Below are positions 22,379 through 61,800 of a stretch of DNA of 64,000 bases, piece by piece. A program made the position numbers and the translations under genes. The stretch is from a virus (taxonomy: Duplodnaviria > Heunggongvirae > Uroviricota > Caudoviricetes), in IMG/VR virus record IMGVR_UViG_3300045988_149737. One strand, written 5' to 3'. Each line of letters begins with the position of its first letter. Positions within the stretch are counted from its first letter, which is position 1. The notes beneath the pieces are model-generated. The model saw nothing but the letters and a program-made list of their open reading frames with translations, was not told the origin of the DNA and did not search any database.

Positions 22379-22820
22379 GCAATAGTACGATAAAGAGGCC
22401 CCATGCTCTTGATGGGGCCTGTAGCAACTAGCGTTATGGACGCTGGTTTACGTACTCAATGATCGCTTTGATAATCGCGAACATCGGCGGCACGATTTTG
22501 AACAGTAAGTTAACCATAACAGGCCTCACTTAGTTTTATCGCGCCTAGCTGCAAATACCTTTGGGCTTGCCTTTGCAGTTGCAATATCTGTAGTCGCCAG
22601 ATACTTACGGCACGATTTCGAGTTAAGGTAAGGTTTTAGAGTCACCAAAAACCTGGACTTAAATCTTCTTTGAGAACAACGATGTTTAGTAAATGGTCAT
22701 TATTACCTGGTATGACCACTCAACGCTTCTTGATGAATCCAGTACATTCGGTTAATCTTAATTCAGTCGCCAGATACTTATGGCTCAGGAACAGAGACGC
22801 AAACTCTGTTTCCTTTTAAA

Positions 22821-22848
22821 AAGCCCAGCCTAGTCAACTGGGCTTTTT
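22821..22848 (+). terminator. rho-independent terminator
   Basis: aagcccag-cctagtcaa-ctgggctt followed by ttttt. Confidence 0.5.
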
Positions 22849-23145
22849 AACGTCTGTTTTTTAACCCAACACACCCTCAATACTGCAACATCAGTGTCTT
22901 GCAACCTAAGATAGTGTCTGTAGGTTCTTCATGCAAGTGCATAACTCAGTGGATAACTCATGAAGGAAAAAGTAGCTTCCGCGCAATTTAGACCAGACAA
23001 GGTCTTCGCAAAAGTCAACGGAAAGAGAAAAATTTGTTAAAAATAACGTTTGTTGGAATTGTATATATTTATGCCTTTCAATAGTTAGCATCTTATTAAC
23101 ATCTTTTTTAAGAGATAGAGTTCAAAAATATATAGCTTCAACATA

Positions 23146-23165
23146 TACTGTATGTATATACAGTG
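23146..23165. promoter_or_regulatory. LexA (SOS) box
   Basis: TACTGTATGTATATACAGTG fits CTGT-N8-ACAG, 17 nt upstream of the UmuD'-like gene. Confidence 0.7.
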
Positions 23166-23181
23166 TTAAGAGGCGAGTATT

Positions 23182-23571
23182 ATGGGCTTCCCTTCTCCTG
23201 CGGCGGATTATGCTGAGAGCCGTATTTCTCTTGATCAGCAGATAATTAGACATCCTTCAGCGACCTACTTCATGAGGGCAGCTGATAGTCATCATCGTGA
23301 GGGAATATTACAGGGTGCATTGCTGGTGGTCGATTCCTCACTTACCCCGGTTGATGGTTCTCTGCTTGTATGCGCTCTGGATGGGGAATATCGCGTAAAA
23401 AGATACCGGAAGTATCCACGTCAGCATCTGGAGGATTTAAGAACCGGTAAGAAGGAAGCATTGCCAAAGGATGACGATGGATGCACGGGCAGCAATGCCG
23501 TGTTTGGTGTGATCACTCACATTATCAACGACGCAAGAAGTGGCGAGTTTGATGATTGTCCCGTGATGTAG
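23182..23571 (+). CDS. UmuD'-like peptidase S24 protein (HumD-like, lacks N-terminal arm)
   Basis: 129 aa; begins MGFPSPAADY, i.e. at the position of the UmuD Cys-Gly self-cleavage site; Ser (AADSH) and Lys (VKR) at the catalytic dyad positions; SOS box upstream; no umuC-like gene follows. Confidence 0.75.
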   Translation: MGFPSPAADYAESRISLDQQIIRHPSATYFMRAADSHHREGILQGALLVVDSSLTPVDGSLLVCALDGEYRVKRYRKYPRQHLEDLRTGKKEALPKDDDGCTGSNAVFGVITHIINDARSGEFDDCPVM

Positions 23572-23583
23572 GAGAACTGATTA

Positions 23584-23608
23584 GGCGGTGCATTGCACCG
23601 CCTTTTTA
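23584..23608. terminator. bidirectional terminator between UmuD'-like gene and apbC
   Basis: ggcggtgca-t-tgcaccgcc hairpin, T-run on plus strand, A-run before it. Confidence 0.55.
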
Positions 23609-24709
23609 TCACACTGCGCGGAATGCGATTTCGCCAGGTATTACTTCACCTTGCCAATACATTTGGGCAGCAACGCGATCTGCGAGGTCACGATAAATAG
23701 CCGTAAATTCGCTATCTGGACGACTAATAACGGTTGGTGTTCCGTTATCCAGATCTTCACGAAGTGAGATATGAAGTGGCATTTGGCCTAACAACAGCGT
23801 GTTGTATTTCTCGGCCAGTTTCTGTGCGCCACCAGTGCCAAAAATTGGCTCGTGATGACCGCAGTTACTGCAAATATGCACACTCATGTTTTCGACGATA
23901 CCCAGTACCGGCACTTCGACTTTTTCGAACATCACAATGCCTTTCTTCGCATCGATCAGCGCGATGTCTTGCGGCGTAGTTACCACAACCGCACCAGTTA
24001 CAGGAATGTTCTGCGCCAGCGTCAACTGAATATCACCAGTGCCCGGCGGCATATCGAGAACGAGATAGTCCAGATCAGGCCACAGTGTTTCTTGCAACAT
24101 TTGCATCAACGCCTTGCTCGCCATAGGGCCACGCCACACCATCGCGTTGTCGTCAGTGACCAGATAACCAATTGAATTGGTTGCCAGGCCATGAGACATA
24201 ATAGGTGCCATGTGAGTACCGTCTGGTGAGGTTGGACGTTGGTTTTCCGCGCCCAGCATGGTTGGAATTGATGGCCCGTAGATATCGGCATCAAGAATGC
24301 CAACTTTCGCACCTTCAGCGGCTAACGCCAGCGCAAGGTTTACCGCCGTGGAAGATTTACCTACCCCACCCTTGCCTGAGCTGACGGCGATAATGTTCTT
24401 AACGCCATTAATGCCTGGTTGGTTTTTAACGCGCTTCAGCGTGGCAATGTTGTGAGACAGCTTCCAGTCGATAGCCTTTGCACCAGTGATACGGAGCAGA
24501 TCACCACTACATTGCTCTTTCAGGTCTTCAAAAGGCTTATTCCACACGAAAGGCATGATTAGTTCGACATGCAGTGTGTCATCCATCAACGCAACATGGT
24601 GTAACGCTTTAAGCGTAGTCAGGTTGTGTTTCAGGGTTGGGTGCTGAAAATTAGCCAGCGTACCGGCTACCATTGCTCTCAGGGCATCCGGCGATTTGGA
24701 CTCGCTCAT
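23609..24709 (-). CDS. apbC: iron-sulfur cluster carrier ATPase ApbC/Mrp
   Basis: 366 aa; P-loop SSGKGGVGKSS, CxxC (CSNCGH); collinear with my recollection of enterobacterial Mrp; divergent from metG as in E. coli; RBS aggag. Confidence 0.9.
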   Translation of the reverse strand: MSESKSPDALRAMVAGTLANFQHPTLKHNLTTLKALHHVALMDDTLHVELIMPFVWNKPFEDLKEQCSGDLLRITGAKAIDWKLSHNIATLKRVKNQPGINGVKNIIAVSSGKGGVGKSSTAVNLALALAAEGAKVGILDADIYGPSIPTMLGAENQRPTSPDGTHMAPIMSHGLATNSIGYLVTDDNAMVWRGPMASKALMQMLQETLWPDLDYLVLDMPPGTGDIQLTLAQNIPVTGAVVVTTPQDIALIDAKKGIVMFEKVEVPVLGIVENMSVHICSNCGHHEPIFGTGGAQKLAEKYNTLLLGQMPLHISLREDLDNGTPTVISRPDSEFTAIYRDLADRVAAQMYWQGEVIPGEIAFRAV

Positions 24710-24866: not shown

Positions 24867-26900
24867 ATGACCCAAGTCGCGAAGAAAATTCTGGTGACGT
24901 GCGCGCTGCCGTACGCTAACGGCTCAATCCACCTCGGCCATATGCTGGAGCACATCCAGGCTGATGTCTGGGTTCGTTACCAGCGAATGCGCGGCCACGA
25001 GGTTAATTTCATCTGTGCCGACGATGCCCACGGTACGCCGATCATGCTGAAAGCACAGCAGCTTGGTATCACACCGGAGCAGATGATTGGCGAAATGAGT
25101 CAGGAACACCAGACTGATTTCGCAGGCTTTAACATCAGCTATGACAACTATCACTCGACGCACAGCGAAGAGAACCGTCAGTTGTCTGAGCTTATCTATA
25201 CTCGCCTGAAAGAGAACGGTTTTATTAAAAACCGCACTATCTCTCAGTTGTACGACCCGGAAAAAGGCATGTTCCTGCCGGATCGTTTTGTAAAAGGCAC
25301 CTGCCCGAAATGTAAAGCGCCAGATCAATACGGCGATAACTGTGAAGTCTGCGGCGCAACATATAGCCCGACTGAATTGATCGAGCCGAAATCGGTGGTT
25401 TCTGGCGCTACCCCGGTAATGCGTGATTCCGAACACTTCTTCTTTGATCTGCCTTCTTTCAGCGAAATGCTGCAGGCATGGACCCGCAGCGGCGCGTTGC
25501 AGGAGCAGGTGGCGAACAAAATGCAGGAATGGTTTGAATCCGGCCTGCAACAGTGGGATATCTCCCGCGATGCGCCTTACTTCGGTTTTGAAATTCCGAA
25601 CGCGCCGGGCAAATATTTCTACGTCTGGCTGGACGCGCCGATTGGCTACATGGGTTCCTTCAAGAATCTGTGCGACAAGCGCGGCGATACCACCAGCTTC
25701 GATGAATACTGGAAGAAAGACTCCACCGCCGAGCTGTACCACTTCATCGGTAAAGATATTGTTTACTTCCACAGCCTGTTCTGGCCTGCCATGCTGGAAG
25801 GCAGCAACTTCCGCAAGCCGACCAACCTGTTTGTTCATGGCTATGTGACGGTGAACGGCGCGAAGATGTCCAAGTCTCGCGGCACGTTCATTAAAGCCAG
25901 CACCTGGCTGAATCATTTTGACGCTGATAGCTTGCGCTACTACTACACCGCGAAACTCTCTTCGCGCATCGATGATATCGACCTGAACCTGGAAGATTTC
26001 GTTCAGCGCGTGAATGCCGATATCGTCAACAAAGTGGTTAACCTGGCCTCCCGTAATGCAGGCTTTATCAACAAGCGTTTTGACGGCGTGCTGGCAAGCG
26101 AACTGGCTGACCCTGAACTGTACAAAACCTTTACCGATGCCGCTGAAGTGATTGGCGAAGCATGGGAAAGCCGCGAATTTGGTAAAGCTATCCGTGAAAT
26201 CATGGCATTGGCTGACCTGGCTAACCGCTATGTCGATGAACAGGCTCCGTGGGTGGTGGCGAAGCAGGAAGGTCGCGATGCCGATCTGCAAGCGATTTGC
26301 TCTATGGGCATTAACCTGTTCCGCGTGCTGATGACGTACCTGAAACCGGTACTGCCGAAACTGACTGAACGTGCGGAAGCGTTCCTGAATACGGAACTGA
26401 CCTGGGATGGTATCCAGCAACCGCTGCTGGCACATAAAGTGAATCCGTTCAAAGCACTGTATAACCGCATCGACATGAAGCAGGTTGAAGCACTGGTGGA
26501 AGCATCCAAAGAAGAAGTGAAAGCCACCGCCGCGCCAGTTACTGGCCCGCTGGCTGATGATCCGATTCAGGAAACCATCACCTTTGACGACTTCGCCAAA
26601 GTTGACCTGCGTGTGGCACTGATTGAAAACGCGGAGTTTGTTGAAGGCTCTGACAAACTGCTGCGTCTGACACTGGATCTCGGTGGTGAAAAGCGTAATG
26701 TCTTCTCCGGCATCCGTTCTGCTTATCCAGACCCACAGGCACTGATTGGTCGTCACACCATTATGGTGGCTAACCTGGCTCCGCGTAAAATGCGCTTCGG
26801 TATCTCCGAAGGCATGGTGATGGCTGCTGGCCCTGGCGGAAAAGACATCTTCCTGTTAAGCCCGGATGCCGGTGCTAAACCAGGCCACCAAGTTAAGTAA
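24867..26900 (+). CDS. metG: methionyl-tRNA synthetase
   Basis: 677 aa from ATG at 24867 ([30 protein letters not shown]); matches E. coli MetG as I recall it; ORF track start at 24738 is an upstream in-frame extension. Confidence 0.95.
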
Positions 26901-30030: not shown

Positions 30031-30342
30031 ATGAAAAGTTCATTGGTTCTTGGTCTGGACAAAGACCAGAAGAGAAAAGAGAAGCCTGCACTGGTTGCTC
30101 AACTAACTTTGCTGGACATCGTTGCCAATGGAACATCTATTCGTCTGTTCCGTGAAACAGCGGTGTCTTTCGATAAAAACACCTTTACTCGTTATGTAAT
30201 GAATGTTCGCCGCCAGCGTGGAAAAGGCTGGATGGCGTTTCAAAGAATGTGGCCGGAACATCAGCTCGAACTGGCCTTGATGGAAGTTAACCGCGTGGCC
30301 CAGCAAGAGATTCAGAGAGCATCAGTGATGGCAATAGCCTGA
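30031..30342 (+). CDS. hypothetical small protein
   Basis: 103 aa from ATG at 30031; ORF track start 30001 is a TTG inside the operator. Confidence 0.45.
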   Translation: MKSSLVLGLDKDQKRKEKPALVAQLTLLDIVANGTSIRLFRETAVSFDKNTFTRYVMNVRRQRGKGWMAFQRMWPEHQLELALMEVNRVAQQEIQRASVMAIA

Positions 30343-40877: not shown

Positions 40878-41144
40878 ATGACGTTAACCGATAAACAAAA
40901 GGACATCATCAAAACGCTCAATCTAGGTTATGAGCGAGGTCATCTACTTGATCTGGACGAATTGCTTGAAGTTTTGCCGTACAAGACAACAAAGCAAAGT
41001 ATCCAGTTCTCAATTCGCGCTCTGATAAAAAAGGGGCTGGTGGAGAAAGGGCATACGCGCCAACGCATTGACAATCGCTATCACCGCCGAACTCTTGGGT
41101 TAACCACTTTAGGTCGAGCCAAAGCGAAGTTACTGGTGATGTAA
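40878..41144 (+). CDS. hypothetical small protein, possible winged-helix DNA-binding
   Basis: 88 aa; RBS aagga. Confidence 0.4.
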   Translation: MTLTDKQKDIIKTLNLGYERGHLLDLDELLEVLPYKTTKQSIQFSIRALIKKGLVEKGHTRQRIDNRYHRRTLGLTTLGRAKAKLLVM

Positions 41145-41973: not shown

Positions 41974-43229
41974 TGGCAATCCCGTCCTCGCTCAGTCTTG
42001 TGCAACTGCATTCTGGACAGATGAAAGTCTTCCAGTCTCCGCATCGATTTAAAGTTGTTTGTGCTGGTCGACGCTGGGGAAAATCCCGGTTGTCGATCTC
42101 CACTATTATTCGTGCGGCGGCAAAGAAAAAAAAGCAAAGGGTCTGGTATGTCGCTCCTACTTACCAGATGGCTCGCCAGATTTTGTGGGACGATCTACAG
42201 GAAGTTCTGCCTCGTAAGTGGGTTAGGAAAAAGAACGACACCACGATGACAATCGTGTTGAAGAACGGTTCGGAGATCGCTCTCAAAGGTGCTGATAAGC
42301 CTGACACTCTGCGCGGCGTAGCGTTGCATTTTGTAGTGCTTGATGAATTTCAGGATATGAAGGCTGACACCTGGTACAAGGTGTTACGACCTACTCTTTC
42401 ATCGACACGCGGCGGTGCACTGATCATTGGTACGCCAAAAGGCTTCTCGGAATTTCACAAACTGTGGACTATAGGCCAGAACGTAGAGCTGCAAAGAAAG
42501 GGACAGTGGAAGAGCTGGCAGTTTGTAACTGCCGATTCTCCGTTTGTGCCTACGGCGGAAATTGAAGCTGCTAAGAACGATATGGATCCTAAATCGTTCG
42601 CTCAGGAGTACCTGGCGAGCTTTGAGAACATGTCCGGGCGCGTTTACTACCCGTTCGATCGTAACGTGCATGTAAAACCGCTTCAGTTCAACCCTCGGTT
42701 GCCTATATGGGTAGGGCAGGACTTCAACATTGACCCGATGTCTTCCGTAATTTTGCAACCTCAGCCAAATGGTGAGCTATGGGCAATTGATGAATTGGTG
42801 CTCTTTTCCTCTAACACGGCAGAAGTTTGTGATGAGCTTGAGAGACGCTTCTGGCGCTGGAAATCACAGATAACGGTATTTCCAGATCCGGCAGGTGCTT
42901 ATCGCCAACATGCTCGCGGGGAGTCTGACGTCGACATATTCAAAGAGAAGGGATTCTTACGTGTCGATTATTCGAAAAAGCACCCGCCAATTGCGGATCG
43001 TGTTAATGCTGTTAACCGAATGCTGATGACTGCATCTGGAGATATCCGGCTGTATATCGATCCGAAGTGCAAGCATTTGATTGATTCACTGGAAAAAGTC
43101 ATCTACAAGCCTGGAACACGAGATATGGATAAGACAGGTGGCATTGAGCATAGTGCAGACGCATTGGGCTATCCAGTACATCGTAGGTATCCAGTCAAAA
43201 ACCGTGTTATTCTTGGTGGTTCTCGATAG
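41973..43229 (+). CDS. terminase large subunit
   Basis: 418 aa; Walker A-like VVCAGRRWGKS, Walker B VVLDEF; followed by the portal gene. Confidence 0.85.
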   Translation: MAIPSSLSLVQLHSGQMKVFQSPHRFKVVCAGRRWGKSRLSISTIIRAAAKKKKQRVWYVAPTYQMARQILWDDLQEVLPRKWVRKKNDTTMTIVLKNGSEIALKGADKPDTLRGVALHFVVLDEFQDMKADTWYKVLRPTLSSTRGGALIIGTPKGFSEFHKLWTIGQNVELQRKGQWKSWQFVTADSPFVPTAEIEAAKNDMDPKSFAQEYLASFENMSGRVYYPFDRNVHVKPLQFNPRLPIWVGQDFNIDPMSSVILQPQPNGELWAIDELVLFSSNTAEVCDELERRFWRWKSQITVFPDPAGAYRQHARGESDVDIFKEKGFLRVDYSKKHPPIADRVNAVNRMLMTASGDIRLYIDPKCKHLIDSLEKVIYKPGTRDMDKTGGIEHSADALGYPVHRRYPVKNRVILGGSR

Positions 43230-58883: not shown

Positions 58884-61800
58884 TTGAACATGGAACAGTT
58901 CAAGAAGAAAAAGCTACCGCTGTTTATTGCCGGTGCGGGTGGTAAAAAAAGCAGCAAAAGCTCCAGCCGTACACCGGTTGAAGCCGACGATACCGTAAAT
59001 TCTCGTGCAATGGCCGCTATCCTCGATCTTCTTGGGGAAGGGGTAATTGGCGGTTTAGTAAATGGCGCAAGATCTATTTTTATCGACGATCTGCCGATTG
59101 TAAATGAAGACGGTTCCTCCAACTTCAGCGGAATCACATGGGATTTTCGCGACGGTTCACAAGACCAGACTCCAATGTCTGGCTTTGATTTCGTTGAAAC
59201 GCCTAAATCCGTCAATATCCAGTTAAAAAAAACACATTATGTAACGGTTTCAATCGATAACGATGAAGCTGATCGGGTTCGTGTCATCATGAAGTTTCCT
59301 TCTTTGCGAAGCATAGATAAAAAAACTGGTGACACGAACGGTACAACCGTTGAGTACAAGTTCCAGATAGCAAATGGCGACTCAACATTTGTAGATGTGG
59401 TCGCAGAAGGTGAAAAAAGCGTTGGCATTAAGCTAACAGCAAAGAAGACAGGTGTTTATTACCGTAGCTATGAGCTGAAGCTGCCTAAGCCTGGACGCGC
59501 ATACAAGGTTCGTGTAGTCCGTATTACCGATGATAACAGCAGCCAGTATCTCTATAACGATACATGGGTGGATTCAATAGGTGAGATTGTCGATACACCG
59601 ATGAACTACCCAAACTCTGTGCTGGTGGGGTTGAAGGTTAATTCTGAGCAGTTCGGCAGCACTATGCCTTCTCGCTCTTATCTGGTGCGTGGCCTAAAAA
59701 TTCGTGTGCCATCAAACTATAACGAATCCAGTAACACTTACGTTGGAGTATGGGACGGTACGTTTAAGCTGCTGTCTTCATCCAATCCAGCCTGGATTCT
59801 TTTCGACCTGTTAACGAATGAACGATATGGGCTTGGCCAATTTGTATCAGAGTCCATGATTGATCTCGGCCAGCTGTACCAGATCGGTCGATATTGTGAC
59901 GAAGAGGTTGATGATGGCTTTGGTGGCAAAGAGAAACGTTTTGCAATCAATACGCAGATTACCAGTCGACAGGACGCATACCGACTAATTCAGGATATTG
60001 CTGGAGCATTCCGCGGCATGGTGTTTTGGGCTGGTGGCATGGTTAACATCATGCAGGATAGCCCGTCAGATCCGGTAATGATGTTTACCAACTCTAACGT
60101 CAAAGATGGATTGTTTACCTATAAAGGTTCTGCGCGTAAAGATCGCCCATCCGTTGCGCTCGTAACCTACAACAACAAGGAGGACGGTTATAAGCAAAAC
60201 ATCGAGTACGTTGAAGATCAGGACGCAATGCGCCGTTATGGTGAGCGTAAGACAGAAGTCGTAGCATTTGGCTGTACAAGCCGAGGCCAGGCCCACCGAG
60301 TTGGTTTATGGCTTTTGTATACAGCCAGAATGGAGTCGGATGTAATTACATTTACTGCCGGCTTAGATGCGTCATTCCTGATGCCTGGTGAAACCGTTCT
60401 GATTCAGAACAAATATCGCGCAGGCAAACGTAACTCAGGTCGAATTGTGGCGTTTACCAAAAACAGCGTCACACTCGATGCGCCTGTGTCGTTAGCCAAA
60501 GGCGGCTGCTTTATTCGAATACTGAATCAGGAAGGCAAAATCGTTGAACGCGATGTTCTTGAAACTGGCGAAAATATAACAAAAGTTACGTTTTCAAAAG
60601 CCCTGTCTTCGGCTGAAACGCCTGTTTTGAACGGCGTCTGGACTATTACAGAACCAGACCTCGAACCTATGCGCGTTCGCATTGTTAACATAGCACAGGG
60701 GGAAACGCCGGGTAGCTTTGACATCACCGCTGTTGAGAACAATCCGTCTAAATATGAGGCGATCGATAATGGTGCAACGCTTATCCCGCAGAATACGACG
60801 GTATTGGACCCGACTTATTCCAAGCCGTCTAATTTGCAAATCACTGAAGGGACTTATCTCTCAAGCCCTGGCAACCTGTCAGTAAAACTGACTGCAACAT
60901 GGGAAGGGAAATCTCCAGAGTATTGGATCAGTTGGCGACGTTCTGATGAAAACAATGTATCGAACTGGCAATCGGCGCGTGTAACCGAAGAGCAATACGA
61001 AATCGTTAATGTTGCGGAGAATGGACGCTACGACTTCCAGCTGTATGCGGTTTCATTCAACGGTAAAAAAACAGAGATTATCAGTACCGTTTATCAGGTG
61101 CTGGGCACAATGACACCGCCAGATGCCCCAACGTCATTAACGGCCGTTGGAGACTATCGTAATGTGATACTGAATTGGGTTAATCCAGATTCGGTAGACC
61201 TTGATCACATTAATGTTTACGCATCCCAGGCCAACAATCTGGATACAGCGAAACTGATCGCAGAGTCTGCAAGCACCACCTTTACACATGCTGGTCTTGG
61301 GGATAGCGAAACGTGGTATTACTGGGTTCGTGCGTCAAACAAGCGCGGTATGTTGAGTCCTCCGAACTCAAACTTGGGTACAGAGGCGACGACTCGCGAT
61401 GTGCTGTCGTTCCTGACAGGCAAAATTACGTCTTCTGAACTTGGCCAGACTTTACTTGAGGAAATCGACTCAAAAGTATCTCAGGAGGCGGTGGATTCCA
61501 TCTATCAACAGATGGAAGAAAGTCTGAAAATCCTCGATGACAAATTTACAGATGCCGATCAGCGGCTTGAAGAAGCTCAAAACAATCTTAAAACGGAAGT
61601 TTCCGGTACTGTCAGCAAGGTGGAACACGCACTTAAGGAGGTTGCAAACTCTAACGCTGCCTTAATTCAGTTGCAGGAAACTGTATCAGAGCAGGGTAAA
61701 GCTGTAGCTGGAGCTGTTGAGGCGGCAAATGCAGCACTTGACAATTCATCGGCTTTAATTGCGGAGGAGCGTGAAGCACGAGTTGAGGGTGACTTGGCAA

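Follow-up and report, generated by a model that had tools for sequence, protein, structure and literature searches.

A standalone humD gene behind a LexA box on an SSU5-like phage-plasmid of Escherichia coli

In Escherichia coli, UmuD' arises from UmuD by RecA-mediated cleavage, with Gly25 as the first residue remaining, whereas HumD, the UmuD' homologue of phage P1, is made directly in the short form. The P1 protein reportedly complements UmuD', forms dimers, and binds both UmuC and RecA filaments; it is also said to be poorly expressed, with good complementation only from a high-copy plasmid, so that its natural contribution to mutagenesis may be small. Papers that cite the original study credit P1 HumD with restoring mutagenesis and with binding to UmuC (McLenigan et al. 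1999, PMID 10559166). In P1, humD and the accompanying LexA site were described more than 20 years ago; the P1 record (AF234173) annotates both, labelling the site 'LexA binding site in the regulatory region of lxr and humD', and a curated NCBI model covers the family. What is new at the locus described here is only its SSU5-like context.

Several further 'UmuD-like' genes, from phiKO2 (gp23), N15 (gp26), HK140 (HK140_028), BTP1, and vB_Ecl_MII_001, fall within the HumD family as well, at 63-71% identity. These genes of phiKO2, N15, lambdoid, and P22-like phages are standalone with a LexA box upstream, as here, and usually sit at a module boundary by tail-fibre, gtr, or integrase genes; they differ in having mostly Thr, not Ser, at the position of UmuD Ser60. 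Two arrangements depart from that of our locus—in phiKO2, the box, an annotated lexA binding site 44 nt upstream of the humD-family gene, is shared with a divergent dinI, and in HK140, the humD-family gene is second, after a 79-aa ORF. MucA, ImpA, RumA, SamA, and the products of phage umuDC operons are likewise S24-fold, LexA-controlled accessory subunits of translesion polymerases from mobile elements. Unlike HumD, however, they keep the N-terminal arm and the cleavage site, and a umuC-type gene comes next, as in phages ST846-OXA48phi9.2 and Oslo and in actinobacterial loci; the FDDxP tail that ends HumD is absent from them.

The locus lies in a 64-kb stretch of viral DNA, analysed whole and referred to here as the window, and comprises the following features:

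23121-23149, plus strand: predicted sigma-70 promoter of humD (-35 TTCAAA at 23121-23126, 17-nt spacer, -10 TATACT at 23144-23149)
23146-23165, no strand: putative LexA operator (2 mismatches to the 20-bp consensus; homologous site annotated in P1; box found at 40 of 40 humD loci)
23168-23173, plus strand: Shine-Dalgarno sequence AAGAGG, read from the sequence, 8 nt 5' of the ATG
23182-23571, plus strand: humD coding sequence (ATG start, 129 aa, TAG stop at 23569-23571)
23545-23568, plus strand: family-specific C-terminal tail E122-F-D-D-C-P-V-M129 (E. coli UmuD ends earlier)
23583-23608, plus strand: intrinsic terminator (stem-loop AGGCGGTGC-ATT-GCACCGCCT, then a T run)

The 129-aa protein is, with near certainty, a member of the HumD family. 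It matches the NCBIfam equivalog NF051876 ('HumD family translesion DNA polymerase') over its full length (residues 1-129 on profile positions 1-129), with a score of 219.8 bits (cutoff 120, E = 8e-66), and PHROG 811 'UmuD-like' with E = 2.7e-54; the NCBIfam UmuD subfamily model (NF007621 / PRK10276), at 87 bits versus a cutoff of 110, stays below threshold. Among solved structures, the best alignments are to E. coli UmuD' (1umu, E = 6.7e-23) and UmuD (8gmt). An AlphaFold2 model built from an alignment of 32 family members is confident in its core, with pLDDT block means of ~81-90 across residues 31-90, and a Foldseek search of the PDB with this model retrieved UmuD' structures best, LexA C-terminal domains also being matched. 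The first-pass annotation had described a 129-aa peptidase-S24 protein resembling P1 HumD; Pfam PF00717 Peptidase_S24 (37.9 bits, cutoff 23.3) bears out the former part, and the NF051876 score together with 91.5-92.2% identity to P1 HumD bears out the latter. With P1 HumD, the protein has in common its length of 129 aa, the MGFPSP start, the C-terminal tail, and a LexA box at the homologous position. With E. coli UmuD', it shares the fold, the post-cleavage N-terminus, and equivalents of Ser60 and Lys97, but it is set apart by the lack of a umuC operon partner, a 10-residue C-terminal extension, and an ADSHHREG motif. Comparison of the gene with P1 humD (dN = 0.042, dS = 0.77, dN/dS ~0.055) indicates strong purifying selection on the coding sequence.

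The beginning of the protein coincides with the UmuD cleavage site. In the PDB alignments, Met1-Gly2 pair with UmuD Cys24-Gly25, residue 2 thus being residue 1 of UmuD'. An in-frame TAA at 23167-23169, four codons 5' of the ATG and within the operator and ribosome-binding region, makes a longer N-terminus impossible. We considered a longer upstream ORF that would include a Cys-Gly site and rejected it, both because of this stop codon and because the MGFPSP start is family-wide, opening 116 of the 120 HumD-family clusters closest to our protein out of 555 (90% identity clusters, E <= 1e-10). Over the same 120 of 555 clusters, the N-terminal GFPSPAxDY, common to UmuD', is nearly invariant, and most of those listed are 126-130 aa long; the named sources of family clusters are Escherichia, Citrobacter, Klebsiella, Enterobacter, Salmonella, Kluyvera, and relatives. 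Alignment with UmuD and P1 HumD shows, then, that the N-terminus is not mis-called, and the start at the cleavage site proposed at first pass holds, with Gly25 matched by residue 2 and any extension blocked by the TAA. Judged from its sequence, the ORF has all the HumD-family features that can be tested, and it has no self-cleavage site, as expected for HumD.

Directly upstream, TACTGTATGTATATACAGTG at 23146-23165 matches the 20-bp LexA consensus that we used (TACTGTATATATATACAGTA; the canonical enterobacterial form is TACTGT(AT)4ACAGTA) at 18 of 20 positions, with both mismatches outside the core; the P1 site has three mismatches. The CTGT-N8-ACAG core at 23148-23163 has both CTGT and ACAG perfect and a spacer that is A/T at seven of its eight positions. 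No other site with three or fewer mismatches occurs in the window, and 100 dinucleotide-preserving shuffles gave none. We relied on this 20-mer test and dropped the count of bare CTGT-N8-ACAG motifs, which is not significant (three matches in the window versus 0.89 expected, with at least three in 6 of 100 shuffles); the other two matches, at 30145 and 61404, have G+C-rich spacers. The near-consensus SOS box recognized at first pass therefore stands, given its 18 matched positions and its uniqueness in window and shuffles, and the distance of 17 nt to the gene quoted for it was correct to one base, the gap to the humD ATG being 16 nt from the 20-mer and 18 nt from the 16-mer.

From this match we infer that LexA binds at 23146-23165. 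The predicted humD promoter has 9 of 12 consensus matches in a consensus scan, in which the humD upstream region holds 3 promoter-like sites versus 2.2 expected in shuffles. Its -10 hexamer (23144-23149) shares four bases with the beginning of the box, so that bound LexA would occlude the promoter. As far as such features can be read from DNA, humD here has those that define an SOS-box-controlled gene.

The association between box and gene extends well beyond this locus. Four phages, namely P1, Enterobacter phage vB_Ecl_MII_001, P22-like BTP1 (where humD is a pseudogene), and Hafnia phage Pocitis76, have a perfect-core LexA box 16-19 nt upstream of humD, and the sequences that flank these four boxes are unrelated. 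A scan of viral contigs returned near-identical loci alone (at least 91% identity), which were useless for footprinting, and we turned to a scan of one genome per species, yielding 40 humD loci with 38-96% protein identity. With conservation defined as a LexA box with five or fewer mismatches in the 300 nt upstream of humD, all 40 loci had one, versus 3 of 489 control windows (0.6%), which were other 300-nt windows taken from the same loci. The boxes lie 14-45 nt before the ATG at 24 of the 40 loci, in two spacing classes of 14-20 and 37-45 nt; at the other 16, they are 255-285 nt upstream, ahead of a ~79-aa ORF that precedes humD, as in HK140. This phylogenetic footprinting is strong evidence, at the level of sequence, that LexA control is a trait of the HumD family.

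Box and gene also travel together. In blastn, identity to P1 (84%) opens with the box itself, at 23146, the counterpart of the first base of the LexA feature annotated in P1, and runs to 23570, within the humD stop codon. Because the homology is bounded by the start of the box and the stop of the gene, the two make up, on sequence comparison, a portable and sharply bounded cassette. The upstream region and humD are also found in an integrated prophage beside tRNA-Thr and proA on the E. coli chromosome, with humD truncated there. The surroundings differ from those in P1, a Punavirus, where humD is preceded by hot and lxr and followed by phd-doc; tblastn found none of hot, lxr, phd, or doc in the window, the best lxr alignment being insignificant (E = 0.35) and at an unrelated position (42768-42860). 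Instead, humD here is flanked by a 766-nt gene-free stretch and a captured apbC-metG pair, the latter recognizable by similarity to the E. coli chromosome that begins downstream at ~23609. The intrinsic terminator, a hairpin of nine pairs of which seven are G-C (terminator scan), lies 12 nt past the humD stop and just ahead of the convergent apbC stop, and is part of neither the P1 homology (up to 23570) nor the chromosomal apbC homology (from ~23609 on).

The element that carries this cassette is, by its sequence relationships, an SSU5-like E. coli phage-plasmid and as such temperate. The humD product is 100% identical to a protein of Escherichia phage Cyrano and 98.5% identical to one of phage PhiR41_1. 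With a 24-kb query around the gene, 92% matches Cyrano at 97.4% identity and 31% matches Salmonella phage SSU5 at 84%, and the window as a whole is co-linear with Cyrano 66601-108379 followed by 1-20266. Among complete E. coli genomes, the locus occurs in 808 records, with 785 of 899 places on plasmids, and the best matches are plasmids of 100-114 kb; on these, RefSeq labels the gene 'HumD family translesion DNA polymerase' or 'S24 family peptidase', and plasmids ~99% identical across the humD region are already in RefSeq under the former name. The temperate or plasmid lifestyle suggested at first pass is borne out by both the Cyrano match and the plasmid matches. Work published in 2025 assigns E. 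coli phage-plasmids of this kind to the SSU5 super-community (pSLy3 group; PMC12429562).

No polymerase partner accompanies the gene. Searching with two phage-encoded UmuC proteins (tblastn), we found no UmuC homologue in the 64-kb window (best E = 1.3), none in the complete 108-kb genome of Cyrano, a 97%-identical phage (best E = 0.97), and none within 2.5 kb of humD at the 40 loci. The same queries readily recover umuC genes that adjoin operonic umuD homologues, both in Actinobacteria and in other taxa (E of ~1e-81 to 1e-117), which shows that the method works. A umuC hidden elsewhere on the element is ruled out by the searches of the window and of the whole Cyrano genome, and the absence of a umuC partner, already remarked on at first pass, thus extends to the related phage and to the neighbourhoods of the family.

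Taken as a unit, 23121-23608 is in our judgement very likely a self-contained, LexA-repressed humD cassette, carried as cargo by an SSU5-like phage-plasmid and supplying UmuD' to host UmuC. In an undamaged lysogen, host LexA dimers on the box, which lies over the -10 hexamer and start site, would keep humD off. DNA damage would activate RecA and lead to LexA self-cleavage, upon which humD would be transcribed as a monocistronic message and yield a UmuD' look-alike without the 24-residue N-terminal arm. Since HumD is made pre-truncated, RecA-mediated cleavage would not be needed, and LexA derepression alone would suffice. As a homologue of P1 HumD, the protein would be expected to form dimers and to partner host UmuC, giving a Pol V-type translesion polymerase that would be available earlier than through the host pathway. 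Replication of damaged phage-plasmid and host DNA would benefit while SOS, and probably also prophage induction, is in progress, at the cost of mutagenesis; both the advantage in timing and the benefit to the element are inferred from this scheme. We regard this physiological role for HumD as reasonably probable.

One part of the protein has no counterpart in UmuD. Past the end of UmuD, HumD continues for 10 residues (S-G-E-F-D-D-C-P-V-M here), among which F123, D124, D125, and P127 are invariant in the family alignment. The tail persists in members of just 38-46% identity (...VFDDTPCI in Rahnella, ...EFDDNPCM in a Hafnia phage, ...EFDDTPF in Franconibacter) and is not present in UmuD homologues that retain the N-terminal arm and a umuC partner. 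On these alignments, the invariant FDDxP tail is a real hallmark of the HumD family, alongside the N-terminal MGFPSPAxDY. AlphaFold2 pLDDT falls below 50 at residues 121-129, which predicts a flexible tail.

It is conceivable, if improbable, that HumD mainly modulates the activated RecA filament or SOS signalling, by damping recombination or changing coprotease activity, with this acidic, SSB-like tail as the effector. UmuD'2C binds RecA filaments and inhibits recombination, and DinI, which also binds RecA filaments, is encoded divergently at the same LexA-box region in phiKO2 and HK140; an invariant, probably flexible tail that operonic UmuD homologues lack would suit such an effector. Against this, the arm residues GFPSPAxDY, which are common to UmuD', are kept nearly invariant, and papers citing McLenigan et al. 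(1999) report restored mutagenesis and UmuC binding for P1 HumD.

The residues at the catalytic positions of UmuD bear on what HumD may do as a protein. S36 occupies the Ser60 position and K73 the Lys97 position in both PDB and family alignments (the 8gmt chain carries K97A, and that Ala aligns with K73), so the dyad positions that the first-pass annotation described as retained are indeed occupied by Ser and Lys here. That annotation laid emphasis on the dyad, yet it is not conserved across the HumD family:

Ser60 position, 120 closest clusters (of 555): Ser 75, Thr 43, Ala 2
Lys97 position, 120 closest clusters (of 555): Lys 117
Ser60 position, 42 diverse members: Thr 24, Ser 9, Met 3, Arg 3, Pro 2, Tyr 1
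Lys97 position, 42 diverse members: Lys 27, Arg 8, Met 3, Trp 2, Ser 1, Leu 1

Around the serine, the active-site motif GDSMIDGG is replaced by ADSHHREG, its GDSM being remodelled to ADSH, and the cleavage site is missing. Across the aligned family, the Ser/Lys dyad is accordingly not required and appears dispensable; with the dyad lost in many members, the function that the family conserves cannot be catalysis or proteolysis.

The tail together with the tolerated loss of the dyad hints at a function beyond that of a 'UmuD' substitute'. The tail is similar to the tip in which E. coli SSB ends (...MDFDDDIPF, a sequence confirmed in PDB 1eqq_A) and on which many proteins of repair and replication dock; a literature search for a link between the SSB C-terminus and HumD found nothing specific. 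HumD might thus be a pseudo-protease adaptor with dispensable catalysis, whose SSB-like tail docks on SSB-interacting proteins or SSB-coated gaps, a reading to which we give a small chance. Just as tentatively, and with low odds in our view, the feature that defines HumD may be the invariant flexible tail (E/D)-F-D-D-x-P-x-(M/I) and not its pre-cleaved, UmuD'-like form.

Very little speaks for HumD as an active Ser/Lys protease in trans, cleaving host UmuD within a heterodimer or cleaving a repressor: UmuD-like proteins are capable of intermolecular cleavage, S36 and K73 are kept here, and among the 120 closest clusters (of 555), Ser or Thr is found at 118 and Lys at 117, but the variation of both positions among the 42 diverse members and the remodelled GDSM motif make this reading most improbable.

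The box might, finally, chiefly govern a leftward transcript, as it does for lxr in P1, with humD expressed from elsewhere or decaying. A divergent LexA-controlled gene or small RNA left of the box was sought and rejected as a candidate: the 61-aa minus-strand ORF there (22906-23091) has no Pfam or NCBIfam match, Rfam gave only sub-threshold matches for this stretch (19 bits versus cutoffs of 47-50), RefSeq annotates nothing in it, and tblastn returned zero matches to dinI in the window. A minus-strand promoter-like site (TTAACA-18-TATGTT, 23169 to 23140) likewise overlaps the box, the P1 record puts its predicted PhumD ~440 nt upstream of the LexA site and inside lxr, and some prophages hold truncated humD copies, but with neither lxr, dinI, nor another credible gene found to the left, the spacing from box to ATG fixed across unrelated phages (14-20 or 37-45 nt), and the ORF intact and under purifying selection, we consider a leftward role or a decaying remnant exceedingly doubtful.

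Read as a LexA-repressed cassette that supplies UmuD' to host UmuC, the locus shows a temperate, SSU5-like phage-plasmid that would be wired into the host SOS response. Box and gene pass jointly between temperate phages that are otherwise unrelated—P1-like, SSU5-like, N15-like, lambdoid, and P22-like. Should the adaptor reading of the tail hold true, it would mean that the phage controls the access of polymerases and repair factors to stalled forks during SOS, and the SSB-tip-like tail offers a cheap and testable lead on the roles of standalone UmuD' proteins in phages.

Two features were noted in the HumD protein, which is encoded in the window as a pre-truncated, UmuD'-type product:

23287-23289 and 23398-23400, S36 and K73 of HumD, the equivalents of Ser60 and Lys97
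23545-23568, C-terminal tail of HumD (residues 122-129), invariant across the family

The Ser60 and Lys97 equivalents are both retained in the HumD of the window and in that of phage P1, but the family as a whole loses them progressively. In a set of 42 diverse members, the Ser60 position is occupied by T (24 members), S (9), M and R (3 each), P (2), and Y (1), and the Lys97 position by K (27), R (8), M (3), W (2), S (1), and L (1)—a decay from which we infer that HumD proteins may behave as pseudo-proteases. The tail instead follows a family-wide motif, (E/D/V)-F-D-D-x-P-x-(M/I), and is predicted to be disordered. E. coli UmuD, in contrast, ends before this position, and operonic UmuD homologues likewise do not have the tail. 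Judged by sequence, it appears similar to the C-terminal tip of SSB (DFDDDIPF); one Franconibacter member of the family ends in EFDDTPF.

A UmuD'-like gene was also recovered from a Chitinophagaceae metagenome-assembled genome (JAKFCE010000020.1; locus L143):

L143:2501-2854, UmuD'-like gene whose product begins MGFPSP; a stop codon in the same frame lies three codons before the start

Its product does not have the catalytic Ser, and a umuC homologue comes after the gene. Unlike HumD, this protein seems to represent a pre-truncated UmuD' still accompanied by its polymerase partner.

The genes and sites around humD also vary among loci. In a large sub-class, comprising phage HK140 and 16 of the 40 loci examined from one genome per species (for example L098, L107, and L123), humD is the second gene, preceded by an ORF of ~79 aa (HK140_027, L004:1262-1501, in HK140) that has no Pfam or NCBIfam match; here, the LexA box precedes this small ORF and is thus 255-285 nt away from humD, on its 5' side. 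Within the window, the surroundings of humD are as follows:

22380-23145, 766-nt stretch 5' of the LexA box
23140-23169, minus strand, leftward promoter-like site (TTAACA-18-TATGTT) overlapping the LexA box
23609-24709, minus strand, apbC, directly after humD
24867-26900, plus strand, metG, encoding a second, complete methionyl-tRNA synthetase of 677 aa

The leftward site is reminiscent of the arrangement in P1, with its divergent lxr, and in phiKO2 and HK140, with their divergent dinI; leftward of the box in the window, no credible gene was found, and a family search with a 61-aa ORF (22906-23091) gave no match. No gene is annotated in the 766-nt stretch in any relative, and Rfam returned sub-threshold matches only. 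Where E. coli records span 80% or more of the stretch (114 records), it is 90-97% conserved. The stretch includes a hairpin (~22818-22848), flanked by an A run on one side and a T run on the other, that looks like a bidirectional terminator, as well as a 190-nt sub-element (22929-23119) with a ~86% match in P1-like plasmids, where it falls within the upfN/upfO/LPhot region, ~1.5 kb 5' of humD.

On the other side of humD, apbC and metG form a divergent pair arranged as on the chromosome, with ~89.6% DNA identity to the E. coli chromosomal copy. The pair is shared by phage Cyrano; among complete E. coli genomes, it was located at 225 places on plasmids. Acquisition of apbC was remarked on in one paper (PMC12429562); we found no mention in the literature of the metG copy or of its role for the element.

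Finally, further LexA-like sequences were located in the window and in Cyrano (OV696614.1; locus L014):

30145-30160 and 61404-61419, other CTGT-N8-ACAG matches in the window
Cyrano 41044-41063, outside the window, second LexA-like box TACTGTTTACTTATACAGTG, with four mismatches and perfect cores

The two window matches have spacers rich in G+C, differ from the 20-mer consensus at more than three positions, and most likely reflect chance. The Cyrano box lies immediately upstream of the integrase gene CYRAN_44 and near the putative repressor CYRAN_45, a placement that suggests more SOS wiring of the phage-plasmid.
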